This document shows positions 3,229 through 38,407 of a stretch of DNA of 47,690 bases, one piece after another. Each line of letters opens with the position of its first letter. Positions within the stretch are counted from its first letter, which is position 1. The DNA is from Deltaproteobacteria bacterium (GTDB lineage: Bacteria > Desulfobacterota > Desulfobacteria > Desulfobacterales > JAFDMD01), in NCBI GenBank assembly GCA_019306185.1, contig JAFDMD010000002.1, positions 1 through 47,690 of the forward strand. The letters are read 5' to 3'. The notes beneath the pieces are model-generated. The model saw only the letters and a list, made by a program, of their open reading frames with translations, had not been told where the DNA came from and did not search any database. Both the position numbers and the translations under genes were made by a program.

Positions 3229-4467
3229 ATGTTTAAAAAAATAAAAATGATAAATTACCGAACTCATATTGAAACGGAATTAGAGCTAAGCGATATTACA
3301 TTGCTGATAGGCTCTAATAATTCCGGCAAAACCAATCTGCTTAAAGGCATTAACTATTTTTCCAGACTGGTAAGCGCTGCATATCCGGGGGGTAGAAGAG
3401 AAATAACGAATCTGTATAGAAGTCATTATTTCCCTAATAAACATAGACTTATTGATTCCGATAAACCTATTGTTTTTTCTTGCGAATGGGAAAAAGAGGG
3501 TAAAAAAATTGAGTATGAATTACTAATATATGTTATCAAAGACGGAAATATAGGCTGTAAAGAAAAAGTAATAATTCATAATAATTCTGGCGAAAAAAAA
3601 GAGATATTATATGGACATGATAAGCCGTCCGATAGAATGCTTTTAAGAAGCAATCTGCAAAACCAAAACTTAACGCAAGAGGAAAAGAATATAACGGAGA
3701 TGTTTTTTCGTTCGCTTTCATCTATGTATTATTATAATTTTCAGCCGGGTTTTTTGAAAGGATTGGCTCATTATAACGGTAATGCCAAAAAGAAAAACTA
3801 CTTGGAAGAATTTGAAAATTTAAACAAATTTCCGAATATTGCAACAGAGATCGGGCAGGAAGGATCTAACTTTATTGAATTGGTTAGATTTCTTAAAGAA
3901 AAGGATGAAATAGGATACGGAAAATTTTTAGGTTACTTAAAAAGATTTGTTAAATCGTTTAACGGGATAGTAATTGATAGAGATATTCCGAAATGGCAGT
4001 TTGACATGGGAGAAAATACTTTTCCGTATTTTGAATCAATTGACGTTTCGGACGGGCTTATTAAAGCCGGAGCCGTAGCTTTGCTATGCGCTATGAGAAG
4101 CCCGGCTCCCGTAATAATGATTGAAGAGATAGAAAACGGCATTAATCAAAAGAATATATCCAAATTTTTAAGCTGGTTAAAAACGGTTGCGGACGGAGGA
4201 AAAAATACCCAGTTTATATTAACCACCCATAGCCCAAGCGTTATACGCGAATTTTCGGACTGTCTGGAAAATGTTTACAATTTGCATCTTAGGGCAAAAG
4301 ATTACAGAACATTAACTACAAATCTTAACGACGCAATAAAACCTCTTGTAAACATGGGACGCATAAAAGAGGAAGATATTATAACAAGAGACGGAAAAGA
4401 GATAGTTAAGGTTAGCCCTTACGAATTAACCGAGTTGTTTTACGACGGAATATTAGGCGAACTGTAA
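3229..4467 (+). CDS. ABC/AAA_15-21-type ATPase (defence-associated)
   Basis: Walker A GSNNSGKT, signature VSDG, Walker B MIEEIEN, H-loop TTHSP; AAGGAG RBS. Confidence 0.85.
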   Translation: MFKKIKMINYRTHIETELELSDITLLIGSNNSGKTNLLKGINYFSRLVSAAYPGGRREITNLYRSHYFPNKHRLIDSDKPIVFSCEWEKEGKKIEYELLIYVIKDGNIGCKEKVIIHNNSGEKKEILYGHDKPSDRMLLRSNLQNQNLTQEEKNITEMFFRSLSSMYYYNFQPGFLKGLAHYNGNAKKKNYLEEFENLNKFPNIATEIGQEGSNFIELVRFLKEKDEIGYGKFLGYLKRFVKSFNGIVIDRDIPKWQFDMGENTFPYFESIDVSDGLIKAGAVALLCAMRSPAPVIMIEEIENGINQKNISKFLSWLKTVADGGKNTQFILTTHSPSVIREFSDCLENVYNLHLRAKDYRTLTTNLNDAIKPLVNMGRIKEEDIITRDGKEIVKVSPYELTELFYDGILGEL

Positions 4468-4478
4468 GGCGGTTAATA

Positions 4479-5192
4479 ATGAGAAATATAGCTATTATAA
4501 GAGAGGGTTTCAGCGATTATTGCGTTATAAAACATTTTATAAGCGCGATTTTACAAGATGATTTTGTCCAATTAACCGATGATAATTTTTTGGATATGGG
4601 AAAGCTAACTATAAGCGATGCTGTTGCAAAATATTTTAAGTCCGGCGGCGGAAATAATTTGGACGATAAAAAAGCGATTGAATTAAAAAAACGTATAATT
4701 GATGTGTTATACACGGCATTTAAGAAGTTTAAGCGAGAAAAAGATAAAGTTTCCAATAAAGATATTTTGGCGATTAATTCGGATGCAGAGAAGATATTAA
4801 AGGATAAAGATAATTATTTTAATAAAGAATTTTATATATTAAATGAAATCTCGCAGCTTGCTATTGAAGAGTTTTATAATAAAATGGTTAAACATGGTTG
4901 GGCTTATGAAAACCTTCCTTTGATTTTGCCTTTAATTTTTTTCCCAAGTTCCGAAATACTGGCGGCGTCATGCATATACGATTTTAAAAGCGAAAGTAAA
5001 AATTTTAGAAAATTACGCGCAAAACCGGATCTTAAATTGAAGGTATATGAAACGGATAATATACCGAGAGCTATTGAAACCGGAAAAATGGAAGAGGTTT
5101 TATCAAAATTTATTACTCCAGAAGCTATTGAAAAAGTATATAAAGAGATTCCGGAAGCAAGAAAATTTATACATATATTAAGTTGCTTATAA
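4479..5192 (+). CDS. Putative TOPRIM-like (DUF4276/RloB-like) partner of the ATPase
   Basis: N-terminal IAIIREGFSD (EGxxD), later INSDAE; starts 11 bp after the ATPase. Confidence 0.55.
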   Translation: MRNIAIIREGFSDYCVIKHFISAILQDDFVQLTDDNFLDMGKLTISDAVAKYFKSGGGNNLDDKKAIELKKRIIDVLYTAFKKFKREKDKVSNKDILAINSDAEKILKDKDNYFNKEFYILNEISQLAIEEFYNKMVKHGWAYENLPLILPLIFFPSSEILAASCIYDFKSESKNFRKLRAKPDLKLKVYETDNIPRAIETGKMEEVLSKFITPEAIEKVYKEIPEARKFIHILSCL

Positions 5193-7752: not shown

Positions 7753-8906
7753 ATATAGCTCAAAGAGTAAAAGAGCTTCCTCCTTATTTGTTTAAAGAGA
7801 TAGATAAACAGAAACAAGAGGCTGTTAAAGCGGGAGCGGATGTTATTAACCTAGGGGTAGGCGACCCTGATTTGCCTACGCCAAATTATGTAATAGAAGC
7901 TTTAAATAAAGCGGCGGTAGAACCCGCAAATCATAGATACCCTTCTTATGCGGGTATGGAAGCTTTTAATAAAGAGGCTGCCTTATGGCTGAAAAAAAGA
8001 TTTAATATAAATATTAAATTAGACGAAATTATAACCCTTATAGGCTCGAAAGAAGGAATTGCCCATACTCCGCTTGCATTTATCAACCCCGGAGATATAG
8101 CCTTAATACCAGATCCTGCTTATCCTGTATATGAAAATGCCGTCCGATTTGCAGGAGGCGTCCCTTTTTATATGCCTCTTAAAAAAGAGAATGATTTTTT
8201 GCCGGATCTTGATGCAATTCCTAAAGATATTGCCCAAAAAGCAAAGCTGATATTTTTAAATTATCCTAATAATCCCACTTCAGCCACAGCCGAACTTTCT
8301 TTTTTTAACCAGCTGGTATCATACGCAAAAAAATATAATATTATAGTATGTCATGACGCGGCTTATACGGAAATTTATTATAACGGCAAAAAACCGGCAA
8401 GCTTTTTGGAAGCCGAAGGCGCTAAAGAGGTAGGGATAGAATATCATTCCCTTTCAAAAACGTATAACATGACAGGCTGGAGAATAGGGTTTGCCGCAGG
8501 CGGCTCCGATATTATAAACGCGTTGGGAAAAATTAAAAGCAATGTTGATTCCGGAGTATTTCAGGCTATTCAGATTGCAGGAATTGCAGCTTTAAAAAGC
8601 GAAGAAACATATATAAACCGAATAAACGAGATATATGAAAAACGGAAAAAAATAATCCTTGACGCTTTAAACTCCGTAGGAATAAAAGCTTACGATCCGA
8701 AAACAACCTTTTATATATGGTTTGAAGTCCCAAAAGGTTATACATCTGCTCAATTCGTGAGCCTTCTTTTATCAAAGGCTCATATCGTAACCATTCCGGG
8801 CAACGGATTCGGAAAAGCAGGAGAAGGTTACGCGCGAATAGCGCTTACTGTAAGCGAAGAAAGAATAAAAGAGGCGGCTTTACGAATTGAAAATGCAAAA
8901 TTCTAA
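7740..8906 (+). CDS. dapL: LL-diaminopimelate aminotransferase (class I/II PLP enzyme)
   Basis: LPPYLF, LGVGDPD, LIGSKEG, NYPNNPT, HSLSKTYNMTGWRIG. Confidence 0.85.
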   Translation: MFGIDIAQRVKELPPYLFKEIDKQKQEAVKAGADVINLGVGDPDLPTPNYVIEALNKAAVEPANHRYPSYAGMEAFNKEAALWLKKRFNINIKLDEIITLIGSKEGIAHTPLAFINPGDIALIPDPAYPVYENAVRFAGGVPFYMPLKKENDFLPDLDAIPKDIAQKAKLIFLNYPNNPTSATAELSFFNQLVSYAKKYNIIVCHDAAYTEIYYNGKKPASFLEAEGAKEVGIEYHSLSKTYNMTGWRIGFAAGGSDIINALGKIKSNVDSGVFQAIQIAGIAALKSEETYINRINEIYEKRKKIILDALNSVGIKAYDPKTTFYIWFEVPKGYTSAQFVSLLLSKAHIVTIPGNGFGKAGEGYARIALTVSEERIKEAALRIENAKF

Positions 8907-9411
8907 AAACCATTACGCCTTTATATCCATAGGCTCGAATATAGGAGATAAAATTGGCGCCTGCCGAAAAGGAATAGATAAAATTAAAGGCTTGCCGTCT
9001 TGTTTTGTAACCGATATTTCAAAATTTTATGAAACCTCTCCGGTTGATTATACGGATCAGGATTGGTTTGCAAACTGCGCTATTAAGATAAAAACCGAAT
9101 ATAGCCCGGAAGAGCTCCTGTTTAATTTGCGAGAAATAGAAAGAAATGTAGGCTCTATCAAGAAAAAGATAAGATTTGGACCAAGAATACTTGATTTAGA
9201 TATTATCTTTTACGATAATATTATAATAGATTCAAAAAGGTTAAAAATACCGCATCCCAGAATGCATAACCGATACTTTGTTTTGCAGCCTATATCGGAT
9301 ATCGAAACAGATTTTATACATCCCGTATTAAAAATAAGCATCAAAAGCTTGATAGAAAATCTTAAAAGTGATATTCAATACAATTGCCAGAAAGCGCTGC
9401 TTATAAAATGA
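8893..9411 (+). CDS. folK: 2-amino-4-hydroxy-6-hydroxymethyldihydropteridine pyrophosphokinase
   Basis: ISIGSNIGD, GPRILDLDI, IPHPRMHNRYFVL. Confidence 0.95.
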   Translation: MQNSKNHYAFISIGSNIGDKIGACRKGIDKIKGLPSCFVTDISKFYETSPVDYTDQDWFANCAIKIKTEYSPEELLFNLREIERNVGSIKKKIRFGPRILDLDIIFYDNIIIDSKRLKIPHPRMHNRYFVLQPISDIETDFIHPVLKISIKSLIENLKSDIQYNCQKALLIK

Positions 9412-9674
9412 GATTATTAATATTTTTATCACTTATATATCTTTGTTATATATTATTAAAATCCCGTTGGAAATCTTCGGGTAAAAAATCGGCTATTAAT
9501 AAAGAAATGGAAAAAACCGCTGATGATATAATGATTTACGACCCTTGCTGTAAAATATATTATCCGAAAAAAAACTGCATAGCATTTAAGGATAAAGATA
9601 AAATATTATATTTTTGCGGCAAAGAATGTAAAAATAAATTTTTGGAAGATAGAAAAAAAGGAGATTTTAAATGA
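9408..9674 (+). CDS. Small membrane-anchored YHS/TRASH-type metal-binding protein
   Basis: N-terminal TM segment, DPCCKIY...YFCGKEC; ATGA overlap with folK. Confidence 0.7.
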
Positions 9675-10315
9675 AATTTTTTATAGATACTGCAAATATA
9701 AAAGAGATCAAAGATGCCCATAGCATGGGAATGGTTGACGGGGTAACTACAAATCCTTCTCTTATTGCAAAAGAAGAAGGGAAATTTGAAGATATTATAA
9801 AACAGATATGCGAGATAGTAGATGGACCTGTAAGCGCGGAAGTAATAGGGCTTGATACTAAAACTATGGTAAAAGAGGCTAAAAACCTTGCGGCAATTGC
9901 TTCTAATATAGTTGTAAAAATACCTATGACAATAGACGGAATAAAAGCCGTAAAAATTTTATCCCAAGAACAGATCAAAACAAACGTAACCTTAATATTT
10001 TCACCTCTTCAGGCGCTTATGGCGGCAAAATCAGGCGCCTCTTACGCGAGCCCTTTTGTAGGCAGATTAGACGATCTTTCACAAGATGGTATGACTTTGG
10101 TAGAGCAGATTGTGGATATTTATGACAACTATGCCTTTGATACCGAAATAATAGTTGCAAGCATAAGAAACCCGATACATGTTCTTGAGGCCGCGCTTAT
10201 GGGTGCAGACATTGCAACAATACCATTTAACGTTTTATCCAAACTCGCGGCTCATCCTCTTACGGATAAAGGGATAGACGCGTTTTTGGCAGATTGGAAT
10301 AAAGCGAAAAAGTAA
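9671..10315 (+). CDS. fsa: Transaldolase / fructose-6-phosphate aldolase family
   Basis: [35 protein letters not shown]. Confidence 0.93.
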
Positions 10316-10324
10316 GATAATCTA

Positions 10325-10888
10325 ATGAATAAAATAACCGACATAATAAGTCACCCTAATTTTTTAACCATTTTTCGGATAGCTGCGGCCCCTATATTGG
10401 TGCTTCTGCTATTATCCACAAATAAAATGTTAACCTTTTTATCCGCTATGGTATTTAGCGCGGCTGCAATAACCGATTATTTTGATGGTTATATAGCAAG
10501 ACAAAAAGGACTTGTATCAAGCTTCGGAAAAATTATGGATCCTGTAGCGGATAAACTTTTAATATCTTCTGCAATTATTATGCTTGTATCCCACGGATGG
10601 ATACCTGCATGGATGGGGTGTATTATAATAGGAAGAGAGATTTCAATAACAGGATTAAGAAATCTTATTATAAAAAAAGGGGGCGATATATCTGCCTCCA
10701 AACTAGGAAAATATAAAACCGGCTTTCAGATAGCCGCTATAATACCGCTTTTAATTCATTATCCATATTTTGGCGTTAATATAAATATAATAGGAATTTT
10801 TTTTTTATGGTGGGCTTTGGTATTTACTGTATGGTCTGCGGTTGACTACATTATAAAGTTTCACAAAATAGAGCCGTTTAAGTTGTAA
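10325..10888 (+). CDS. pgsA: CDP-diacylglycerol--glycerol-3-phosphate 3-phosphatidyltransferase
   Basis: PNFLTIFRI and TDYFDGYIAR...FGKIMDPVADK CDP-alcohol phosphotransferase motif. Confidence 0.95.
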   Translation: MNKITDIISHPNFLTIFRIAAAPILVLLLLSTNKMLTFLSAMVFSAAAITDYFDGYIARQKGLVSSFGKIMDPVADKLLISSAIIMLVSHGWIPAWMGCIIIGREISITGLRNLIIKKGGDISASKLGKYKTGFQIAAIIPLLIHYPYFGVNINIIGIFFLWWALVFTVWSAVDYIIKFHKIEPFKL

Positions 10889-10985
10889 GTAATAAAGCGG
10901 CAAAGTAACAGAGTAACAAAGTTTTATCCCGTCTTTTTATTATTTTTGTAATTGTTATCACTTTGGATAAAAATTTTTAATAATA

Positions 10986-11018
10986 TATGTTGGGTTATGC
11001 GAAGCGCAACCCAACATA
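10986..11018. repeat. REP-like palindrome between convergent pgsA and hicB
   Basis: TATGTTGGGTT-atgcgaagcgc-AACCCAACATA, 11-bp perfect arms. Confidence 0.65.
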
Positions 11019-11045
11019 CTTAACTGTTTTTACGTATTACTAAAT

Positions 11046-11246
11046 CTATGCATACATTAATCTTCTGCCTTTTGCTTGAGGAATAGGGTTTGCCGTATCT
11101 ATCCAAAGCCGAATTGCTTCTTTTGCATTGGAAAGAGCCGATTCATAGGAATTCCCATGCGCCATACATCCGGAAAGTTCCGGAACTTCAGCCAAATAAG
11201 CTTTGTCTTCTTCGCTCCAATAAATTATTGTTTCGTATTTAAACAT
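11046..11246 (-). CDS. hicB: HicB-family antitoxin (orphan)
   Basis: YETIIYWSEEDKAYLAEVPELSGCMAHG...AKEAIRLWI; GGGAGG RBS. Confidence 0.85.
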   Translation of the reverse strand: MFKYETIIYWSEEDKAYLAEVPELSGCMAHGNSYESALSNAKEAIRLWIDTANPIPQAKGRRLMYA

Positions 11247-11315
11247 TATTGCCTCCCAATCTCGGACTCCTTATCAATAATCACTGGAGCGAGGAACGAG
11301 TGCCCTGTGGATTTT

Positions 11316-11700
11316 TTAATTCTCTATTTTGATTGATTTGATAATTTGTTCAATTTCTTTCATAGAGCCAGTTTTTTCATCTTGTCTTGTGGTAGCGCCA
11401 ATCATAAAGAAATAATCGCCTCGCGGTACAATCCACATCTTCGATGTGATTGGGAATGTCCGTCCGTCCATAATCCGTAACAAATAATTGAACTGCATAT
11501 AGGCTGCGTTTAACTCATCCATCTTAACATCTATAGGAGATTGCGCTAACTGAAAGTTTTCGAATATCTTTTGCATTAGAGGCAAGATTGAAGATATAAT
11601 TTCTTTACCATCTTTTCCTTTTAGCTGACCGTATGGTTTGATCATTGGCAGTGACGGTTAACAATATAACTAAAAATGGGATTAATTTAATGTATTTCAT
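11316..11700 (-). pseudogene. Internally deleted, frameshifted exported protein
   Basis: ATG at 11700 gives the signal peptide MKYIKLIPFLVILLTVTAN, which shifts out of frame near 11645. The 109-aa C-terminal part continues in another frame. Confidence 0.55.
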
Positions 11701-12053: not shown

Positions 12054-12128
12054 GCGGGAATAACTCAGCGGTAGAGTGCGACCTTGCCAAGGTCGAAGTC
12101 GCGGGTTCAAATCCCGTTTCCCGCTCCA
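12054..12128 (+). tRNA. tRNA-Gly(GCC)
   Basis: GCGGGAA acceptor stem, anticodon arm GACCT-TGCCAAG-GTC, TTCAAAT T-loop, encoded CCA. Confidence 0.97.
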
Positions 12129-12137
12129 TTTTTTTAT

Positions 12138-12212
12138 GGCGGCATAGCCAAGTGGTAAGGCAACGGTCTGCAAAACCGTTATTCACCGGTTCGAATCCGG
12201 TTGCCGCCTCCA
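12138..12212 (+). tRNA. tRNA-Cys(GCA)
   Basis: GGCGGCA...ACGGT-CTGCAAA-ACCGT...GGTTCGAATCC...TGCCGCCTCCA. Confidence 0.97.
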
Positions 12213-12338
12213 TCTACGAAACTTCTTTAACAACTTATAAGATACCGTTTTATGTATAACAAAATAAACGCTTATGATTAAATATAAGACACAACAAGGA
12301 ATAGATTATACCCCCTGTATCAATAGGAGGTTAAGAGG

Positions 12339-12435
12339 AAATAATAAAGGGATTTCTCCCTTCGGTTCGAAATGACAGGAAGCAATTTTTTTACCGTGTA
12401 ATGTCAACGAGCGCGTCGAGGAGAAATCTTATAAA
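12339..12435 (+). repeat. Intergenic repeat family B, copy 1
   Basis: About 95 bp, GGGATTTCTC...GACAGGAAG...TTTTACCG.TAATGTCAACGAGCGC..CGAGGAGAAATCT. Near-identical inverted copy at 25432-25524. Confidence 0.85.
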
Positions 12436-12539
12436 ACAGGACAGTTTCCGTAGAAAATCTTGCAGGAATTTTTTAAATTTAAACTAAAAACTTATTGACC
12501 TGTTTTTTATCAAATGTTATCAATTTCAGGTTAATTTTA

Positions 12540-12625
12540 GGAGGGATGGCCGAGTGGCTTAAGGCGGCGGTCTTGAAAACCGTTGAGCGAAAGCTCCGTG
12601 GGTTCAAATCCTACTCCCTCCGCCA
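12540..12625 (+). tRNA. tRNA-Ser(TGA)
   Basis: GGAGGGA stem, GCGGT-CTTGAAA-ACCGT, long variable arm, CCA end. TTGACC-17-TATCAA promoter upstream. Confidence 0.96.
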
Positions 12626-12656
12626 GTCGTTTTATGAAAGATTTATAAAAAATATC

Positions 12657-12749
12657 GGAGAGATGGCCGAGTAGGTCGAAGGCGCTCGCCTGCTAAGCGA
12701 GTAACGGGTGAAAGTTCGTTCGAGGGTTCGAATCCCTCTCTCTCCGCCA
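12657..12749 (+). tRNA. tRNA-Ser(GCT)
   Basis: GGAGAGA stem, CTCGC-CTGCTAA-GCGAG, long variable arm, CCA end. Confidence 0.96.
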
Positions 12750-17563: not shown

Positions 17564-18352
17564 TTATACCATCCTTTCTGAAATTTTTACTATTTCTCTT
17601 TTTATTTTAAAACCGCCGCATCCGACGGCGTTTCTTTTTGCCAATTTTAATTTACCTTCTTCAAAAAACTTTATAGCTTTTGTATAAAGCTCCCATTCGA
17701 CTTTTAGTCCTTTTTTTTTAATTGTTTCCAAAGTGTCGTCTTCAAGTATCAGAAAGCTTTTTTGCGCTATAATAGCTCCTGTGTCTTCGCCGTAATCTAC
17801 AAAGTGAACGGTGCATCCGCCTATTTTTGCGCCGTATTCAAAGGTGTCTTTATATCCGTTTGTTCCTGCAAAAGCCGGAAGCAAAGCGGGATGGATATTC
17901 ATAATTTTTGGCTTGTTCGGCTCCGTATTTATTTTATCTATAAAATAAGGGGTGAGTTTTCTCATAAAGCCTGCAAGAATTATAAGATCGAATTTAAATT
18001 TGTCCAGTTTGTTTAACAGGTCTGCTTCGGCTACGGCTCTTGTTTTAAAAAAGAGTTCGGTTTTTTTATTTTTTATTTTAAATAATTTTTGAAGGGATAA
18101 TATTTTTTCTATGTTAAAATCTGTTGGAAGTTTGTTTTCAATGTTTTTATCCGCTATTATTTTTTTATAATCTGTTATAAAGGTAGGTATGTTGTATTTT
18201 TCGGCTTTTTTAAGTCCGAACGCGTCAAATTTATCTGCTCCTACGCATACTATTTTTGCGTTTATCTCTTTTTTAATGCAGGAATCTATTACAGCCTGAA
18301 GATTTGTGCCGTTTCCTGAAATCAAAGCGGCTATTTTTAGTTTTTTTTTCAT
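17564..18352 (-). CDS. purN: Phosphoribosylglycinamide formyltransferase
   Basis: ISGNGTNLQA, LAGFMR, NIHPALLPAF, GCTVHFVDYGEDTG; carries an internal insertion. Confidence 0.93.
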   Translation of the reverse strand: MKKKLKIAALISGNGTNLQAVIDSCIKKEINAKIVCVGADKFDAFGLKKAEKYNIPTFITDYKKIIADKNIENKLPTDFNIEKILSLQKLFKIKNKKTELFFKTRAVAEADLLNKLDKFKFDLIILAGFMRKLTPYFIDKINTEPNKPKIMNIHPALLPAFAGTNGYKDTFEYGAKIGGCTVHFVDYGEDTGAIIAQKSFLILEDDTLETIKKKGLKVEWELYTKAIKFFEEGKLKLAKRNAVGCGGFKIKREIVKISERMV

Positions 18353-18358
18353 TGCCCG

Positions 18359-20560
18359 CTATCTATCAGCGCTAATATACTGTTCGGAAGCGCGGAAAAG
18401 AATTGCTTTATTTTGCGGGCTTAAATTTTCAAAAATAGGTTTCGGATTAACCGTATTGATATTTTCAAAACCTGCAAAGAGGCTGTTTGCGATTGTTTGG
18501 CAAAACCAGTTTTCGCGCTTTTGATTCGGATCAAACGTATCTGTTGTATCGGCTTTTATTCTTTTTTTTAAGATATTAAGCGGTTGAGCGTTCTTTGTTT
18601 CGTTATAATATCCGTTTTGCCCCTGTATAAGCTGTTCCAAAGCTATTGCGGTTTTTTGTTTGGGAAAATTTTGATAAAGTTGTTTCCATTCATCTTCGGT
18701 TCCGTTGTTATGCGCCAGATGTTTATAGCGCAGCTCCGCTATATTTATACCCAAATCGTTATCATATTCTTCGGAGTTTTTTTCAAAGAATAAGTCCGCC
18801 TCTTCAGATTCGGAATAGGAATAATGCCATGCTTGTTCTTTTATTACAAAAATATTGTCCGGATAATCTTTTTCAATCTCTTTTAAAAAATTATCGGCTT
18901 TTTTTGTATATTCGGCTTTTTTATTCTTTTCTTTTTCAAATACGCTTAACCCGCGGTATAAATTTATGCGTCCGATTTTTATTTCAATGTCCTCTTCGGT
19001 TAACTCGGTTTTTTGCAATTTATTAAAGTTATTATCAGGCGCTGCGGAATATATTTTATTTTTGCTATCTACAGCGCTATTAATAATATTATGTATATGC
19101 TTTTTTTTTTCTCCGGTGTCTTTTATATCTTTTAACCATAAAATATTATCTAATGCTCTTTTATAATGTTCGAAATCAGGAGATTGTTTTTCAAGCAATC
19201 GTTTATATATGGTTTCGGCTTCGTCCAACCTGTCTTGTTGAGATAAAAGCGTAGCAAGTCCTGTGCTGCATACCTCATCTTCGGGGAAATCTGCTATAGT
19301 TTCGCGATATACCGCTTCGGCTAAATTCGTTTCTCCGGTTTTAAAAAGATGATGCGCAAGATTATTTCTTATAAAATCATCTTCCGGAAATTTCCTTTTT
19401 GCCTTCCATAATATACTTTCCGCCTTTTTATATTCCTTTTTTTGCTTATGTATATTAGCTCTTAATATCCATATAAAAGGATCGTAAGGCTCCCATAAAT
19501 ATGCCTCTTCAGCCAACCTTTCGGCTATATCAATATTTATTTCCAAAAGAGCGTTGGCTGTTCTATGAAACGCCTTTACAAGATTTTTAGAGTAACCGGT
19601 ATTCATAGCATAATTTATGCTTTTTGAAATAAAGGTATTAAGCTGTTTTGTTTCGGACGGACTTTTTTTTAGCAGATTAATTATTCTGTCCGTTTCTTTT
19701 TGATTAGGATACTGTTGCGGCTTATAGGATTTTTTTACTTTATCGGATGAATTAAGCTTTTTATGAAAGTTCGGAAGAACAGAGTTAAGCCATTTTACCG
19801 CAGTCTTGTTTTGTTCGTTTGTTGCCAAAGGGATAAATTTTTTTATCCAATACTGTTCGGTTCTTGGGTAAAGCCCCATAATAGAGGATAATTTTAATGT
19901 CCAAAACTCTTTTGCCTTTTTAAGATTATAAGGTTGATTTTTTTTAAGGGCTTTTGCCAGATCAAAAAAACTTTTTAATACTATGTCTCCAATATCGCCG
20001 GGCGGGCTGCCGTCTTTTTCCGGCATTATTCTAATCCCGAGTATAGCAATAGAGGCATAATCTGTAGGCATATCTTCTTGCATGTTTATAATTTTAAACC
20101 ACAAAGGCATAAGGCTTTGATTTTTTTGCCCGCGGGCAAGCATTCTTAATAAAGAGCCTTCCGGGTCGTTGCCGCTTCCTTTATATAAACTTTTAAGCCA
20201 GATTCTATCCTCTATATATTTTTTACAGGCAAACTTGTAAGATTTATTAAGTTTTAGTCTGTCTATTGTTATAAATACCTGAGACAATAATGCAGACCAG
20301 CGCGCAAGCGGCATTGAAGAAGGAACTTTTCCCCAGTTTTTTTGAAGCCATTCGCATATTGCGTTATCTAATAAATCGGCTTTACTTGTATGAAAAATAC
20401 GAAATAATATTTCGCTTATTTCGTTTCTATTAAGCGCGCCCATATATACGCGGCGCATAAGCAGATTATCCAAAGAGGTTAAAGGCTCTTTTTCAAAATC
20501 AAGCTCCCATTTTATAACCGCAGGATTTTTGCTTCCCGGTTTTTTATTGGTATTTTCCAT
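18359..20560 (-). CDS. Large TPR-containing protein, function unknown
   Basis: 733 aa. Consecutive TPR-like units in the middle (AERLAEEAYLWEPYD, AESILWKAKRKFPED, AEAVYRETIADFPED, AETIYKRLL) and a Trp-rich helical N-terminus. Confidence 0.8.
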   Translation of the reverse strand: MENTNKKPGSKNPAVIKWELDFEKEPLTSLDNLLMRRVYMGALNRNEISEILFRIFHTSKADLLDNAICEWLQKNWGKVPSSMPLARWSALLSQVFITIDRLKLNKSYKFACKKYIEDRIWLKSLYKGSGNDPEGSLLRMLARGQKNQSLMPLWFKIINMQEDMPTDYASIAILGIRIMPEKDGSPPGDIGDIVLKSFFDLAKALKKNQPYNLKKAKEFWTLKLSSIMGLYPRTEQYWIKKFIPLATNEQNKTAVKWLNSVLPNFHKKLNSSDKVKKSYKPQQYPNQKETDRIINLLKKSPSETKQLNTFISKSINYAMNTGYSKNLVKAFHRTANALLEINIDIAERLAEEAYLWEPYDPFIWILRANIHKQKKEYKKAESILWKAKRKFPEDDFIRNNLAHHLFKTGETNLAEAVYRETIADFPEDEVCSTGLATLLSQQDRLDEAETIYKRLLEKQSPDFEHYKRALDNILWLKDIKDTGEKKKHIHNIINSAVDSKNKIYSAAPDNNFNKLQKTELTEEDIEIKIGRINLYRGLSVFEKEKNKKAEYTKKADNFLKEIEKDYPDNIFVIKEQAWHYSYSESEEADLFFEKNSEEYDNDLGINIAELRYKHLAHNNGTEDEWKQLYQNFPKQKTAIALEQLIQGQNGYYNETKNAQPLNILKKRIKADTTDTFDPNQKRENWFCQTIANSLFAGFENINTVNPKPIFENLSPQNKAILFRASEQYISADR

Positions 20561-20589
20561 TTTGATATATTCGGCTCTAATTATAAATG

Positions 20590-21540
20590 TTATTTTTTAT
20601 TGATTTCATTTATGTTTTTTAATCCGTTTTTAAGCAGGTTTAAATGAAACCCTCGGATATTTTCACATTTTTCGGCAGAAGAAGAATCTATTTCGCCTAT
20701 GCGGTAAATATGAGTATCTTTATATTCTATAAAACTATGGAGTATTTCTTTGTTAAAATAGTATGCGGATTCCTTTGTTGCGCTGAGGTTTAAAGTCTGT
20801 CCTTCTTCGGAACTTGAACTTGTAGGGAAAAAGAATTCTGAAAAACCGGAATCAAGAACCGTAGGTATCGAAAATCCGTTTTTTTTTTGATAACTTAAAA
20901 CTTCGGAAACTCTGTATCTGAGAAGCAATACCGGAATGTTTTCTCCAGTTTCTGGGGCGTAATGCCCTAATCCCAGTCTGTCTCTTAATAGGTTTGCCCA
21001 GTTTTTATTTTGATTGTCGAATATATTTTTTATTTCTCCCCAAAAGCCTGCAAATATGGGGCGTTTATCTCTTTTTAAATTCCAAGAATTCAAAAAGTCA
21101 TGCAAGGTTTTTTCCCGATTATTTTCGGAAGGCGGTTTGCCTGTTTCGGAAATTTTGTTTAATATATTGAATAATTCGGCTTCCTCGTCTTTAAAGTCGG
21201 TTAAAGATATTGCTCCGTTTAAGTTTTCAAGCCTTACTAAATATTGATTTTTATCTATTTGGTTAAGAAAGTTTATATAGTTTATTTTTGTAAAGGTTTC
21301 GGGCCGTTTATTTTTATTCTGTTCTATATAAATTTTTCGGTGCAGATAATTCTCATGCTCAAATTGCCAGTCTCCGAATTTTTCGCTATCATCTTTAATG
21401 AATTCCGAATAAACCTCTTCCCGCTTTTTTTGTAATCTTTCTTCCAAAATAAAATTTTCAGCTATAAAACTATCGGAGCCTGATAAGGATGCTATATTTT
21501 TTAAGTTGTTATAAAAATTTTTATATTCTTTAAACGCCAT
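20590..21540 (-). CDS. Hypothetical protein with a predicted ADP-ribosyltransferase-like fold
   Basis: 316-aa intact ORF. The order YLVRLE / RPIFAGF / LRDRLGLGHY / VLLLRY / IPTVLD / FFP..GQT / KEILH / IYRIG matches ART strand topology. Fold is inferred by eye. Confidence 0.6.
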   Translation of the reverse strand: MAFKEYKNFYNNLKNIASLSGSDSFIAENFILEERLQKKREEVYSEFIKDDSEKFGDWQFEHENYLHRKIYIEQNKNKRPETFTKINYINFLNQIDKNQYLVRLENLNGAISLTDFKDEEAELFNILNKISETGKPPSENNREKTLHDFLNSWNLKRDKRPIFAGFWGEIKNIFDNQNKNWANLLRDRLGLGHYAPETGENIPVLLLRYRVSEVLSYQKKNGFSIPTVLDSGFSEFFFPTSSSSEEGQTLNLSATKESAYYFNKEILHSFIEYKDTHIYRIGEIDSSSAEKCENIRGFHLNLLKNGLKNINEINKK

Positions 21541-21594: not shown

Positions 21595-22437
21595 TCAAGT
21601 TAAAAAGAGTCTGTTACTTAAGCTGACAAATTCTTCTATTGTAAGGGTTTCGCCGCGGCGGGTAGGATCTATTTCGGCATCTTGAAGAGCTTTGATGCAG
21701 ATTTGCGGCTCTATGTTGAGAACGCCGCTTTTTGTAAGGGTGTTTTTTAAATTTTTACGGCGCTGGGCAAAACCGGCTTTTATTACGGAGAATAAAAATT
21801 TTTCATCCGCAGCTTTTATAGGGTAATTTTTTAAAAAATCTATTTTTATAATGGCAGAATCTACTTTCGGCTTTGGATAAAAAAGATGAGAGTCCACATT
21901 GCAAAGTTTGGTTGTTTTACTACAGTAATTTAGCATTGCGGTAAGCCTGCCGTAATCTTTTGTTTTGGGTTTGGCGAGAAGTCTTTGAACTGTTTCTTTT
22001 TGCAGCATAATAACCGCTTTTTTTATTATATCTCTGTTGTTTATAAGTTTTACTATTATTTGAGAAGATATTTTATACGGGAGGTTTCCGATTACTATAA
22101 TTTTTTGTTTGTTTTTACATAGGCTGTTTATATCAAAGTATAATATGTCATTATTGATTAATTCTATATTTGAAAAGCCTTTTTTGATAATTTGATGGTT
22201 TAATATGTTTATAAGTTTTGTATCTTTTTCTACGGCATAAACTTTTTTAACCGTAGAAGCTATGGGAAAGGTAAGTCCGCCAAGCCCGGGACCTATTTCG
22301 AGAATAGTATCTTGGGGCAGCAGTTCGGCTTTTTTTATTATCATGTTTGCAGTGGACGGATCGGTTAAGAAATTTTGCCCCAAATTTTTATTCGGTTTTA
22401 CTTTATATTGAAATATCGGCTTTAAAACTGACGTCAT
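21595..22437 (-). CDS. rsmA: 16S rRNA (adenine1518/1519-N6)-dimethyltransferase
   Basis: LGQNFL, LEIGPGLG, GNLPY, MLQKE, FYPKPKVDSA, RRGETL. Confidence 0.97.
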   Translation of the reverse strand: MTSVLKPIFQYKVKPNKNLGQNFLTDPSTANMIIKKAELLPQDTILEIGPGLGGLTFPIASTVKKVYAVEKDTKLINILNHQIIKKGFSNIELINNDILYFDINSLCKNKQKIIVIGNLPYKISSQIIVKLINNRDIIKKAVIMLQKETVQRLLAKPKTKDYGRLTAMLNYCSKTTKLCNVDSHLFYPKPKVDSAIIKIDFLKNYPIKAADEKFLFSVIKAGFAQRRKNLKNTLTKSGVLNIEPQICIKALQDAEIDPTRRGETLTIEEFVSLSNRLFLT

Positions 22438-27518: not shown

Positions 27519-27764
27519 AGATTGCGCTAGGCGGGGAGCCAGCGGTGCCCTGTAACCCGAAATCCGCTTTATGCGGGGCCGAAGTCCTCCCTAAGGGCAT
27601 TTACTTAATAAACGAATAGATTATCTTGGAAGCCGCGTAACGAATGCTTACGAACCTCGTCAGGTCCGGAAGGAAGCAGCGATAAGTATGAATATTCGGG
27701 TAGCGGACAATTTCGGGATAAGCTGTTGTTTGTTAATAGAAGCTCGTAAGGAGGCGCGCAATCT
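27519..27764 (+). ncRNA. ffs: Large bacterial SRP RNA with Alu domain
   Basis: S-domain TCAGGTCCGGAAGGAAGCAGC at about 27660. The 5' GCTAGGCGGGGAGCCAGCGGTGCCCTGTAACCCGAAATCCGCT resembles Bacillus scRNA, and the ends AGATTGCGC / GCGCAATCT pair. Confidence 0.93.
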
Positions 27765-31968: not shown

Positions 31969-32912
31969 TTAATCCGAAATGATTTGTTTATATTGTATAA
32001 AAACAGGTTGTAATAGTTTTTCCAAATCCTTAAAAATTTCCGAAGATTGATTGTCTCTTAAATTTTTTAGTATGTCTTTTTTAAATGCCTCTATATTGAA
32101 GTTTTTAATTTCTAATTTTTCCATTAATGTATTGCAAAGCTTGTTAAAAGCCTCTTTTCCTCTGAAATTTTGATTGGCGAATTCAAATAGATTATTATCT
32201 TTTAAGTTATTCCATTTAAAATACTTCGTAATATCATCAAAAAGCTGTTCCGGGCTGCATAATTGATCGATTTCGGCTTGTAAGCCTGCGGCGGTATTGC
32301 AAAACCAGTTTTTGATTTGTTCGAGGCTTTCCTTTACTAAGTTATTTGGAACGCCGATTTTAGGATATATTATTTTATACGTATTAGACAAATTAAACTT
32401 TAGGCATTCTCGAAATTCTTCATCTATAACTAATTTATAATAGTTTTTTAAAATATCTTCTATTGATATTTTATCCGCTTTTTTGTCTTTGTTTTTATAT
32501 GGCTTGTTTCCATTGGATTTATCAGGAAGCAGGTTTATTAAGTCTGCAATAAGTTTGGATTCTACAAGCAGATAATTTTCCCATTCATGCCCGCGCCAAT
32601 ATAATATATTAGGTTTTTTATTTTTGATAAGAGTTTTGTCGTTGTCCGCCTTTTTTCTATTGTTTTAAAGGGTCTGTAATCTCTGTCTGATATGGCTATT
32701 ATCGGTATTTTTTGATGCAGTTTGGAATGAAGGTATATTCTGCGGGCAAAGATATTAAATGACGAGGCGCTTCCCGTATCAAACAGATTAAAATTAACTT
32801 CAAAAGAATTTTTATCAATTATATTTTTGATAGCGGATTCAAAAAAAACCAATTCCGGACTATTCGGCTCTCCTTCAACCAGAATATACAGATTGTTTTT
32901 AGATACTTTCAT
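31969..32912 (-). pseudogene. DUF4435/TOPRIM-like nuclease split by one frameshift
   Basis: ILVEGEPNSPE and ISDRDY in the first frame. After the A6 run at 32651-32656 a shifted frame gives YWRGHEWENYLL and runs open into the 31969-32391 ORF. Confidence 0.75.
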
Positions 32913-33975
32913 CCAAATCTCCCAAATCTATAATTTCGTCGTCAAAAAAGAGCTGTTTTACAAACTGAGAATGGGTTGTAAAAACATATTGATTGTTTAA
33001 AGAATCGTTTCTTAATGTTTCTATAAGTTTTCTTTGCCACGCAGGATGAAGATGAAGCTCTATCTCGTCAATAAGAACTATTGAGTTTTCGGCTGTTTCG
33101 GCTATTAATCCTACTAATATTCTTAATATTTGATGTTCGCCGGAGCTCATTTGAGCCAGATCGTATTCAACCCCGTTTTTTCTGATAATAAGAGTATCTA
33201 TATCGGGTCCGGATTCGATTCCTATAAGTTCGGCGGGATAACAGATTTTATCGAATAATCTTTCAATCCTGCTCCAATAAGATTCTCCGTATTTTTCTTG
33301 ATTCCATGTTTGATTTCTTTGACGGTATATATTAAGCCAAGACAGCACATCGTCGTAAGGCAGATGCAATTCCTCTTTTTCGACGGAATAGCTTTTGGTA
33401 ATTCTAAAGGAGCGTCTTTGATCTAAATAGCAGACGCTTCCTATTTTTTCAAATATGCTTTTTCCTATAAAATTTTCCGCTACTCCTTTTCTTGCGTTTC
33501 CTCTTGCGCCTATTACCTTCGCGGCATTTCGGGGAGAGGTAAATGCTGAAAAAGGTTTTTTGTAGGTTTTATTAGGGTTTGGAAACTGCCATTTTATATT
33601 TGAAGGTATATCAAGAGGAGGTGTTTTATCTTTAAAAGAAAAAGGAGTATTCCATCGAAGCGCTTTATATACTTCATTGATAGCCTCCGCTTCTTTTAAA
33701 TCAATACCGGAAGAAAAATTAATTTCAGCGATATTTCCTCTTCCTTTTACTATTTGTTGAGCTGAAAATTCCAGTCCTTCGCGCAGTCTCGGATTATAAG
33801 GGTCTTCCAATGTGCGGACTACGATATGAATGGCGTCTAAAACAGAGGTTTTTCCGCTTCCGTTGGGTCCTACAATTAAGGTTACGGTTCTCGGCTTGGA
33901 AAAATTGTCTGTAAAATCGAAAGCGCCGGATTCTATCGCTCTAAAGTTTTTAATTGTAATAGAATGTAGTTTCAT
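32899..33975 (-). CDS. ABC/AAA_15-21-type ATPase (defence-associated)
   Basis: IKNFRAI, GPNGSGKT, MSSGE, LIDEIELHLHPAWQ, TTHS. Confidence 0.88.
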   Translation of the reverse strand: MKLHSITIKNFRAIESGAFDFTDNFSKPRTVTLIVGPNGSGKTSVLDAIHIVVRTLEDPYNPRLREGLEFSAQQIVKGRGNIAEINFSSGIDLKEAEAINEVYKALRWNTPFSFKDKTPPLDIPSNIKWQFPNPNKTYKKPFSAFTSPRNAAKVIGARGNARKGVAENFIGKSIFEKIGSVCYLDQRRSFRITKSYSVEKEELHLPYDDVLSWLNIYRQRNQTWNQEKYGESYWSRIERLFDKICYPAELIGIESGPDIDTLIIRKNGVEYDLAQMSSGEHQILRILVGLIAETAENSIVLIDEIELHLHPAWQRKLIETLRNDSLNNQYVFTTHSQFVKQLFFDDEIIDLGDLDESI

Positions 33976-36676: not shown

Positions 36677-38407
36677 TTACTGGGCGGTTATTAAAAACAG
36701 CTTAATATATCTTGCATCCAAAAGTTTAAAGTTTTCAATATATTTATACTCTTCTTCCAATTCGTCAAACAGCTCTTTTAATATTTCCGCCAGTCCTATG
36801 CTTATATCCGCTTTGGTTTTAAAAGCTTTTAAAATAACTTCCGATAAAAAATCTTGTTTTGCGCTTTTTTTTATTTGGTTTGTTTTATTATTATTTTTTT
36901 CAAATATTGTATTTAAAAATTTTATTAACTCCTCTTTTGTAAGCGGGGTTAGTAATTTTTCTTTTTTAACCCAAAAGGTTAAAAGTATATTTTTATAATT
37001 AATAAAGGTAGCAAAGCTTGTTTTTTTTATTTCATCTGTTTGTATATCAAGCTTTTTTAAAAATATATCCGCAATAATCGCTTTATTCAACTTTTTTTCG
37101 GCGTTTTGTATTTCTTTTTGCGAAGCAAAATTTTTGTAAAGACTGCCGTTTTTATAATTATCAAAAAAAAGAGGTTTATCAAGTAGAAGTCCTCCGCATA
37201 CTCCTGCAAGTTTTTCGTCTAAAAAGCTTAAAGAGAATTTGTTTTTTTTAAAGAAGCTTTCTTTAACAAATTTTTCGGCTTTTCTTTTAAGAGATAATAC
37301 GGGTTGATAACCGAATCGAAAAATATCCGCTAGCATATATTTTTGTATAATGTCCGCGCAAAACTCATCTTTGGTTTTTCGCGTCGGGTTTTCTTTTTTA
37401 TAAGAAGCTTCCAAACTTATATTTAAATATCCGCGCGCTTTTTCAATGAATTGGTTAAGCTCTTTTTTGTTTTTTATGATTTTTTTATCCGCAGATATTA
37501 TCTGATTGCATAAGGAGGCAAATTCATAATATATGCCGGAAATTATATCCGGGTTTTTTATAAGATTAACCGCCGTCGCAAAAAGGTCTTTTTGTTTTGT
37601 ATGTTTGAAAAAGATTTTCGGCAGGTCTGTTAATTTTGTTTCCGTTTGTTTGAAAAAGATTTTTTTTTCTTTTTTTTTAAAAATTTCATAAGTTAAAGGC
37701 TGATATATCCCTACGGCTTCGTAGTATGGAACAAAACCTTTTTCCGCAAGCCGGATATTTTTTATTCTAAAAAGTTCTTCTTCAATTTCCGAAGATATTA
37801 CGGCGGAGGATGTAAATAGAAGGTTTTGCAATAGATAATAATCGTAATTTGCTATATCTTGTAAAAAGTTTTTTATAAATTTTTCCGCCTGTTCGTCTTT
37901 TTGTTCGTAGAGAGATTTTATTTTGATATAAAAGGTATCGTCAAAAGTAAAAAAATCATCGTCAAAATCGGACGGATCCATATTTTTGTCTCTTATTCCT
38001 ATGCTTATAAAACGATTTAATATAAAATTAAGCAGGTCTTTTTTTTCTTCCGGCTCTTCTTTAAAAAACCAGTTTACAAGTCTTTTGGGAGCCGCCGTTT
38101 TAAAAACTTTAAGCCAGTTTAAAGCGGCGTTAAAATCGAATCTGTCTTTATTCCAAGATTCTATGTCTAGAATGTATGTAAGTTGTTTTGAAGATGCCAT
38201 AGCAATAATAGGAAGAGCGTCTTGTATGCCGATTTCGTGTATTAATAAATGAAGGTCGTCTTCGCAAAAGGAGTGAATTAACGGCGCCGCCTCGTTATCG
38301 TTTATGATTGCGTCAAGGGCTTGTTCCGGCGTTAAAGCGAGAATTTTTTCTCTTTTTACTTTAAGTTTTTCAATTATTTTATTGTGATTTAACAGTGATT
38401 TTTTCAT
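36677..38407 (-). CDS. DUF6178-like conserved deltaproteobacterial protein
   Basis: 576 aa with EIGIQDA, YILDIESW, EEELFRIKNIRLAEKGF; family name recalled. Confidence 0.7.
   Translation of the reverse strand: MKKSLLNHNKIIEKLKVKREKILALTPEQALDAIINDNEAAPLIHSFCEDDLHLLIHEIGIQDALPIIAMASSKQLTYILDIESWNKDRFDFNAALNWLKVFKTAAPKRLVNWFFKEEPEEKKDLLNFILNRFISIGIRDKNMDPSDFDDDFFTFDDTFYIKIKSLYEQKDEQAEKFIKNFLQDIANYDYYLLQNLLFTSSAVISSEIEEELFRIKNIRLAEKGFVPYYEAVGIYQPLTYEIFKKKEKKIFFKQTETKLTDLPKIFFKHTKQKDLFATAVNLIKNPDIISGIYYEFASLCNQIISADKKIIKNKKELNQFIEKARGYLNISLEASYKKENPTRKTKDEFCADIIQKYMLADIFRFGYQPVLSLKRKAEKFVKESFFKKNKFSLSFLDEKLAGVCGGLLLDKPLFFDNYKNGSLYKNFASQKEIQNAEKKLNKAIIADIFLKKLDIQTDEIKKTSFATFINYKNILLTFWVKKEKLLTPLTKEELIKFLNTIFEKNNNKTNQIKKSAKQDFLSEVILKAFKTKADISIGLAEILKELFDELEEEYKYIENFKLLDARYIKLFLITAQ

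Follow-up and report, generated by a model that had tools for sequence, protein, structure and literature searches.

In a 47,690-nucleotide stretch of a Desulfobacterales genome (Deltaproteobacteria bacterium, assembly GCA_019306185.1, contig JAFDMD010000002.1; hereafter the window), two adjacent genes, which we call A and B, are encoded between rsmA and purN. A first-pass annotation, made from the sequence alone, had described them as intact, co-oriented open reading frames (ORFs) of 316 and 733 residues separated by 29 bp, with purN starting 6 bp after the stop codon of the second. Our analyses confirmed this layout, the purN ATG being at position 18352 (Table 1). The two genes belong to a co-directional run on the minus strand composed of cobA/hemD, moaA, a DUF2062 gene, rsmA, A, B, purN and the gene of a Mrp/NUBPL-type ATPase. 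The G+C content near the pair (0.33-0.36) is not distinct from that of the rest of the window, and a promoter and terminator scan gave hits at the level of shuffled sequence (22 found versus 21.3 expected). The rsmA-A, A-B and B-purN junctions are all spanned, with identical letters, by contigs from four public runs belonging to two studies; these are marine sediment and hydrothermal vent metagenomes, and one run may be the source sample.

Table 1. Features of the A-B locus in the window (aa, amino acids; homologue counts refer to the alignment of the A family; residue numbers are those of the protein concerned).
Feature	Position	Strand	Remarks
rsmA (16S rRNA dimethylase)	21595..22437	(-)	upstream; Pfam RrnaAD E 2.9e-64; context, outside the module
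Gene A	20590..21540	(-)	316 aa; family without a name
A, R103 codon (L-V-R-L-E)	21232-21234	(-)	other candidate 'R/H' position; 115/118 homologues
A, R160 codon (R-P-I-F-A-G-F)	21061..21063	(-)	candidate 'R/H' position of ADP-ribosyltransferases; 113/118 homologues
A, residues 186-209	20914..20985	(-)	candidate pocket-lining segment: L-R-D-R-L-G-L-G-H loop (R186, G190, H193) and strand 202-210 ending at Y209
A, E265 codon (K-E-I-L-H)	20746..20748	(-)	candidate catalytic Glu; predicted strand 263-268; 118/118 homologues
A, H268 codon	20737-20739	(-)	three residues past E265; 111/118 homologues
A-B spacer	20561..20589	(-)	29 bp
Gene B	18359..20560	(-)	733 aa; stop codon 18359-18361
B, residues 1-350	19511..20560	(-)	family-specific all-alpha ARM/HEAT-like solenoid domain; best-conserved part of B
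B, residues ~338-476	19133..19549	(-)	tetratricopeptide repeats; Pfam TPR_19 E 4.4e-12, TPR_14 E 7.9e-11
B, residues 520-733	18362..19003	(-)	conserved C-terminal region, probably helical
purN	17564..18352	(-)	downstream; Pfam Formyl_trans_N E 1.5e-46; context, outside the module

The gene order rsmA, A, B, purN is identical in a second genome of the same genus (locus L004), whose A and B proteins are 75% and 69% identical to those of the window. The ratios of nonsynonymous to synonymous substitution rates (dN/dS) between the two loci are 0.28 for A and 0.34 for B, compared with 0.13 for rsmA, 0.17 for moaA and 0.34 for the DUF2062 gene; judged against this same-genus copy, both A and B evolve under purifying selection. 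The idea of an rsmA-purN operon into which the pair is inserted did not hold as an ancestral arrangement. In all four order-level relatives that have both genes, rsmA and purN are found on different contigs or 170-670 kb apart, indicating that their proximity in the window is specific to the genus.

The product of A has no match in Pfam (E≤1), the ART and ADPrib_exo_Tox families included, nor in NCBIfam, PADLOC or PHROGs. A word-indexed search identified 161 relatives and an exhaustive search 441 representative clusters at E≤0.001, all called 'hypothetical protein' wherever the source gives a name. They come from Desulfobacterales, Ca. Electrothrix, Brocadiaceae, Dehalococcoidia, Acidobacteriota/Aminicenantes, Clostridia, Magnetococcales, Lamprocystis, Methylumidiphilus and Pseudomonas. 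We aligned 118 diverse homologues to determine residue conservation in the family. Only P161, G247 and E265 are invariant (each 118/118), and R103, R160, W181, R186, G190, H193, Y209, P226, D230, F237, H268, R296 and H299 are nearly so; Y209, D230 and G190 are present in 117 sequences each, R186 in 114 and H193 in 110 (see Table 1 for R103, R160 and H268). One homologue, that of locus L005, has a His residue at position 160. No conserved triplet resembling an STS (Ser-Thr-Ser) motif was seen in the alignment. The motifs by which the first-pass annotation had proposed an ADP-ribosyltransferase (ART) fold are all present in A, and they hold the most conserved residues of the family.

B is predicted to be an all-helical solenoid protein, with an ARM/HEAT-like N-terminal domain, tetratricopeptide repeats (TPRs) and a probably helical tail. 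Its earlier description as a large TPR protein is thus correct in part: the TPR_19 and TPR_14 signatures score well above their cut-offs at residues ~363-470 (46.6 bits for a cut-off of 25 and 42 bits for a cut-off of 23.5, respectively), but the TPRs account for only about a fifth of the protein, and the N-terminal domain is ARM/HEAT-like. The N-terminal ~350 residues show 33-72% identity and 34 invariant columns among 20 sequences. Identity between the C-terminal region and the corresponding ends of full-length homologues is 23-29%, and a weak match to a LapB-like/TPR NCBIfam entry covers residues 546-672. B homologues are 733 to 1028 residues long and vary in their number of TPRs. A protein search with the N-terminal region returned B alone, and a search with a six-sequence alignment of that region returned mostly generic TPR proteins and one true homologue (P0259). 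No PADLOC or PHROGs model matches B, and no helix-turn-helix or other DNA-binding Pfam domain was found in it. We also considered B as an enzyme, such as a macrodomain or ARH-type antidote, and dropped this possibility because its N-terminal domain is purely helical and matches repeat proteins only.

The linkage of the two genes is strict. Using the closer half of the A family, pattern scans recovered 32 loci in several phyla (10 in species genomes, 22 in metagenomes), and in 27 of them A is immediately followed by a B homologue. Of the other five, four (L016, L026, L034 and L035) end without downstream DNA, and one (L013) carries a decayed 148-residue A remnant and no B; co-occurrence, which the first-pass annotation had put forward as a check of the pair, was therefore observed in 27 of 28 testable loci. 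The A-to-B gap is within tens of bases in the 27 loci, and in some of them the reading frames overlap by a few bases. The 2 of 41 related genomes that match the profile of the B N-terminal domain are those with A, and in five of five other A-bearing genomes the profile was found once, next to A, albeit split by a frameshift in one of them. A 657-residue protein encoded on two contigs (P0145) joins residues 60-306 of A to a part matching residues 251-456 of B plus TPRs, and keeps the Glu-containing motif as C-E-V-L-H. This single case is an apparent A-B fusion, which may be a gene-call artefact. Comparing the ORFs of the loci all against all, we saw no further gene that is conserved; the remaining recurrent clusters are shadow ORFs inside A and B, and we therefore abandoned the notion of a third component. 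In L013 (positions 7914-11643), the A remnant is followed by a 1026-residue ORF without a Pfam or NCBIfam family.

The pair is rare. We found A in 2 of 41 relatives, namely the genome of the window and one of the same genus, and in 1 of 401 genomes of a phylum-wide sample, that of the window itself; it was not found in a further 400 genomes, a sample of unclear make-up. Another same-genus genome (G001, 93% complete) has no match for A, the B N-terminal domain, rsmA or purN, and this region is therefore probably unassembled, which makes the absence of the pair there uninformative. The tree of A mixes phyla: a Clostridia copy nests with Acidobacteriota (support 100/98), and the Dehalococcoidia protein groups with an unrelated metagenome copy. 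A very long branch (1.18 changes per column) leads to the A proteins of the window and of its same-genus relative, and the amino acid composition of the former is unlike that of the rest of the tree (chi-square p<0.001), which would fit rapid evolution in an AT-rich genome. Together, the rarity of the pair and the mixing of phyla in the A tree indicate that A-B is a rare, horizontally spread accessory module. The first-pass annotation had noted that a conserved core locus of the family would refute its proposal, and the pair is not one: 2 of 41 relatives have it, and none of the 400 other genomes of the phylum sample.

An AlphaFold2 model of A based on 35 sequences has high confidence scores (predicted local distance difference test, pLDDT, 90.7; predicted template modelling score, pTM, 0.89). 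It predicts five N-terminal helices, a strand carrying R103 (residues 100-106) and a helical hairpin (106-156), followed by a strand-helix-strand core in which R160 is just ahead of a strand (162-166) and E265 is on a strand preceded by a 45-residue loop. A Foldseek search of the PDB with this model gave nothing at E≤0.001. The first 12 matches are the streptococcal NAD+ (nicotinamide adenine dinucleotide) glycohydrolase SPN (three entries), NatT (two), the phosphodiesterase-mono-ADP-ribosyltransferase (PDE-mART) protein SdeC (two), DarT1, pertussis toxin S1, a catalase, an HD-domain protein and the VPA0770 toxin, with more pertussis and C3 entries in lower rows. We take NatT and the mART of SdeC to be members of the ART superfamily. 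SPN was ranked first by two aligners independently, 1.5 Z units above the next match and with near end-to-end coverage. The ESM Atlas provided no usable lead for A (its own model has a pLDDT of 0.32, with feature scores ≤0.82). We conclude that the predicted core of A is nearest in shape to SPN, with a putative ART/SPN-like fold, on evidence that is fair but not secure. The ART fold proposed in the first-pass annotation is retained as the nearest fold, without a sequence match to ART families or a Foldseek match below the threshold.

SPN is presented in PMC3795565 as an atypical member of the ART superfamily: it contains a linker subdomain made of helices, its R/H motif is His273, an STS motif is absent, and the ADP-ribosylating toxin turn-turn (ARTT) loop carries E389-x-E391. 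A is similar in having a helical subdomain, no STS motif and a Glu-bearing strand after a long loop. Reading the equivalences from the order of the secondary structure elements and not by superposition, we infer that E265 would correspond to E391, R160 or R103 to the R/H position, and the R186-G190 loop to the SPN alpha8-beta3 loop (Gly330). In contrast to SPN, A has a single invariant Glu residue instead of the E389-x-E391 motif, its R/H position is probably occupied by Arg instead of His273, and it lacks a secretion or translocation domain. Nor do the two share sequence similarity: PF07461 (NADase_NGA) was not matched, and no ART family was matched by the 118 members. PF07461 is not among the 25 families listed out of 33 that were weakly matched by the A family, each of those listed being matched by one member, and its profile gave no match in 401 genomes, the control genomes likewise being without a match. 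We had also considered A as a secreted polymorphic toxin, a possibility that was dropped because it is a stand-alone 316-residue protein without a Pfam-detectable delivery domain and, by eye, without a signal peptide-like N-terminus.

The reading that we favour, tentatively and at somewhat less than an even chance, is a conflict module of two genes that is self-contained and horizontally mobile, and in which a solenoid protein, as sensor or inhibitor, controls an NAD+-consuming effector. A would be an intracellular, SPN-like enzyme of the ART superfamily that attacks the nicotinamide-ribose bond of NAD+ by means of E265, and it might thereby deplete NAD+ or ADP-ribosylate a non-canonical, i.e. 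non-protein or unusual, target. B would be made from the same transcript, with overlapping reading frames in places, and would hold A in check by binding it through its conserved N-terminal domain. The variable TPR and C-terminal part of B would probably read a trigger, for instance a phage protein, and sensing of this trigger might release or activate A, such that the infected cell is stopped. In this scheme NAD+ is the presumed substrate, the catalytic roles of E265, R160 or R103 and Y209 are putative, and the binding of A by B, the direction of the control exerted by B and the nature of the trigger are likewise conjectural. In favour of this reading are the active site-like conservation of E265 and of several Arg, Tyr, Trp and His residues, the linkage of A with B, a distribution of the kind expected for conflict genes, with variable flanks and some defence genes nearby, the varying number of repeats in B, and the precedents described below.

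An NAD+-targeting effector with a repeat-protein controller is a known kind of system, but the A and B families themselves are undescribed in the libraries that we used. In agreement with the first-pass annotation, which recognised no named system of this composition, no family or system in Pfam (2025), NCBIfam (2026), PADLOC (2023) or PHROGs (v4) corresponds to the pair, and the full-text articles searched, supplements aside, gave no description of such a pair. Should A prove to be an NADase or ADP-ribosyltransferase under the control of B, the two would represent an unannotated family pair with 441 representative clusters. An ART-type effector with a separate solenoid sensor that is not a nucleoside triphosphatase would then join the TIR, SIR2, RES and SPN-like strategies of NAD+ depletion, and the streptococcal SPN fold would gain a bacterial relative in the cytoplasm. 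With its strict two-gene architecture, the module should be easy to study in a laboratory strain.

Several described systems resemble this scheme in part. In Streptococcus pyogenes, the operon of SPN (Nga) also encodes IFS, an all-helical inhibitor that neutralises it (PMC1298937, PMC3795565), and this is the same arrangement of an enzyme and a helical partner as that proposed for A-B. The partners differ, since B is a solenoid/TPR protein of 733-1028 residues and IFS has 161 residues, and IFS is not among the 50 fold matches listed for the B N-terminal domain. In DSR2 (defence-associated sirtuin 2), an NAD+-destroying domain is joined with a large alpha-solenoid, by which a phage protein is recognised (PMC11850899, PMC11263360). 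The logic of an NADase with a solenoid sensor would be the same as in our proposal, and the apparent P0145 fusion mimics the single-chain layout. DSR2 differs in its SIR2 catalytic domain, its single polypeptide and its trigger, the tail tube protein, whereas A is predicted to be ART-like and A-B is made of two genes. The RES-Xre/NatRT/MbcTA, DarTG and ParST systems also consist of intracellular ART-fold enzymes with neutralising partners; their enzymes consume NAD+ or ADP-ribosylate non-canonical targets, and NatT and DarT1 are among the weak Foldseek matches of A. BcTir/Tpr of Bacillus cereus is a two-gene anti-phage operon that combines NAD+ chemistry with a TPR protein (bioRxiv 10.1101/2023.05.26.542521). 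There, the TPR protein has the NADase activity at its N-terminus, with a TIR protein as the partner; neither is homologous to A or B, and their folds are different. Finally, type II toxin-antitoxin systems usually encode a small, labile, DNA-binding antitoxin upstream of the toxin gene, whereas B is a 733-residue protein without a DNA-binding domain that is encoded downstream.

The flanks of the pair differ from locus to locus. In L005, an Eco57I-type methylase and a BsuBI/PstI endonuclease, i.e. a restriction-modification system, are encoded within 4 kb. A complete PD-Lambda-5 system (L025:9288-11543; E 1.8e-143 for its A component and 6.8e-121 for the B component/methyltransferase) is found 0.7 kb after B in the metagenome contig L025, a PDC-S35 TIR protein is encoded within 4 kb of the pair in L032, and HigBA is near the pair in L028. 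These amount to 4 of ~27 contexts with recognised defence or toxin-antitoxin genes, a raw count. Uma2 and HEPN genes are near the pair in L017 and L018. In the latter (L018:3288-11204), the pair is located between selB and selD (SelD TIGR00476, E 3.6e-102), with the HEPN gene upstream of selB and the Uma2 gene after selD.

A number of observations weigh against the conflict module. None of the 118 A family members matches any ART family even at E≤10, and searches of PDB sequence profiles with A returned chance-level matches only (e.g. RET kinase and RNF216), SPN not being listed. The family has no Q/E-x-E motif, as the position two residues before E265 is variable in the 118 homologues (V, A, T, R, G and others), which argues against classical Arg/Asn protein ARTs; A thus differs from the R-S-E clade (cholera toxin, C3 and iota-like enzymes) in lacking both S-T-S and Q/E-x-E. 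PADLOC (2023) has no family for A or B at E≤1, nor for the A homologue of L006 or the B homologue of L017 at E≤1e-5. Searching 72,556 plasmids, 50,697 phage records and the IMG/VR viral contigs turned up nothing, and the variable flanks consist mostly of housekeeping genes. The linkage count covers the closer half of the A family, to which the gamma-proteobacterial branch of Pseudomonas and Lamprocystis (~30% identity) does not belong. Moreover, B looks broken in 5 of the 27 loci, being truncated in L005, frameshifted in L009, short in L021 (444 residues, with the N-terminal domain only and no TPR part) and interrupted by stop codons in L023 and L033, and the key residues of A are kept in all five, except for the replacement of R160 by His in L005. 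If real, such breaks beside an intact A would argue against B being an indispensable antidote. Assembly errors are another possible cause; the split B of a further locus, L011, is due to a scaffold gap only. Last, genes of purine biosynthesis or 10-formyl-tetrahydrofolate (10-formyl-THF) metabolism, namely purN, purH, purM and fhs, adjoin the pair in four independent contexts of the ~26-29 examined, and together with the 6-bp packing of purN against B, this recurrence suggests a physiological link.

These neighbours deserve closer description. purN directly follows B with a 6-bp gap in the window (17564-18352) and in L004, and purH (L006:6444-8000) follows B at 76 bp. In L027, purM (L027:4624-5643) precedes A, and L030 has an AIRS_C fragment (L030:2-271) that is 73% identical to this purM, while the A copies of the two loci are only 54% identical. 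The fhs gene precedes A in L021 (92-1858) and L022 (3845-5611), where the Fhs proteins are 95% identical and the A proteins 73%; the L022 pair is inside a Wood-Ljungdahl cluster. The purine/formyl-THF label is scattered on the A tree, with 5 changes for 6 rows, and a rough post-hoc estimate puts the probability of such neighbours by chance at ~1e-4, for a pattern noticed after the fact. The window and 19 loci showed no Rfam element beside the pair, ZTP and purine riboswitches included.

These contexts are an argument for regarding A-B as an accessory regulator linked to housekeeping functions, in which a non-lethal ART-fold A would act on a specific cellular target or a carboxamide ribonucleotide tied to purine/10-formyl-THF metabolism or translation, with B as a target-recruiting scaffold and both co-expressed with purine/one-carbon genes. 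The purine and fhs neighbours are co-directional and scattered on the tree, translation-linked genes are found beside the pair as well (rsmA, selB/selD, typA, prmA and gatAB), the key residues of A persist where B looks broken, and no association with mobile elements, plasmids or phages was found. We nevertheless consider this explanation unlikely, as the pair is too rare for a general metabolic role (none of the 400 others in the phylum sample, and a single one of 40 relatives), the purine gene beside it differs each time, no riboswitch or other Rfam element accompanies it, the enrichment was noticed post hoc, and defence genes recur nearby too. A stronger version, which we regard as very improbable, would make the pair an ART-fold enzyme and a solenoid scaffold wired into purine/10-formyl-THF metabolism, and not a suicide or defence device. 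The nicotinamide-type pocket of A could then read or process a carboxamide ribonucleotide of the 5-aminoimidazole-4-carboxamide ribonucleotide (AICAR/ZMP) family, or A could ADP-ribosylate a component of the purine pathway or of translation when the one-carbon supply fails. Such wiring, if true, would explain why a rare, horizontally moving pair is found beside purN, purH, purM or fhs in four independent lineages. If real, the purine and one-carbon neighbourhood would also hint at a connection of NAD+/ADP-ribose chemistry with purine supply, on which our literature searches found no paper.

The resemblance to SPN could alternatively reflect a shared alpha/beta arrangement only, with A performing some other chemistry centred on E265, without using NAD+, and B as its obligate partner. 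We judge this improbable, given the first rank of SPN with two aligners, 1.5 Z units clear of the next match and almost end to end, the predominance of a single superfamily among the weak Foldseek matches, and the invariant Arg, Tyr and Glu residues on successive predicted strands, which fit the logic of ARTs. Still less probable in our view is a plain toxin-immunity, or addiction, pair devoid of sensing, in which the B N-terminal domain would plug the active site of A stoichiometrically, as IFS does with SPN, and the module would persist selfishly. Its patchy distribution, the position of B immediately downstream of A with frames that sometimes overlap by a few bases, the SPN-IFS precedent and the short B of L021, which keeps the N-terminal domain only, agree with such a pair. 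However, the conserved TPR and C-terminal parts of the 733-1028-residue B proteins go far beyond the needs of an inhibitor, the toxin gene would come first, a DNA-binding antitoxin is missing, carriage on plasmids or prophages was not found, and A is intact beside a broken B in some loci. The conflict module thus remains our preferred reading, at the tentative level given above.

Other features of the window were also noted. At 3229-5192 (plus strand), a 412-residue AAA_15/AAA_21 ATPase, which PADLOC matches to AriA (E 7.4e-26) and HEC-01A, is followed by a 237-residue ORF without a family; the two may form a small PARIS/OLD-like defence module, ~15 kb from the pair. A second AAA_15/AAA_21 ATPase (32899-33975, minus strand) is PtuA-like in PADLOC (E 5.6e-36), with no partner gene identified. 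A 576-residue DUF6178 protein (36677-38407, minus strand; E 3.2e-129) is encoded between plsB and two genes for MqnC/CofH-type radical-SAM proteins. The window also harbours a cluster of four tRNA genes (12054-12746) and the large bacterial signal recognition particle RNA (27522-27761; 139.9 bits).

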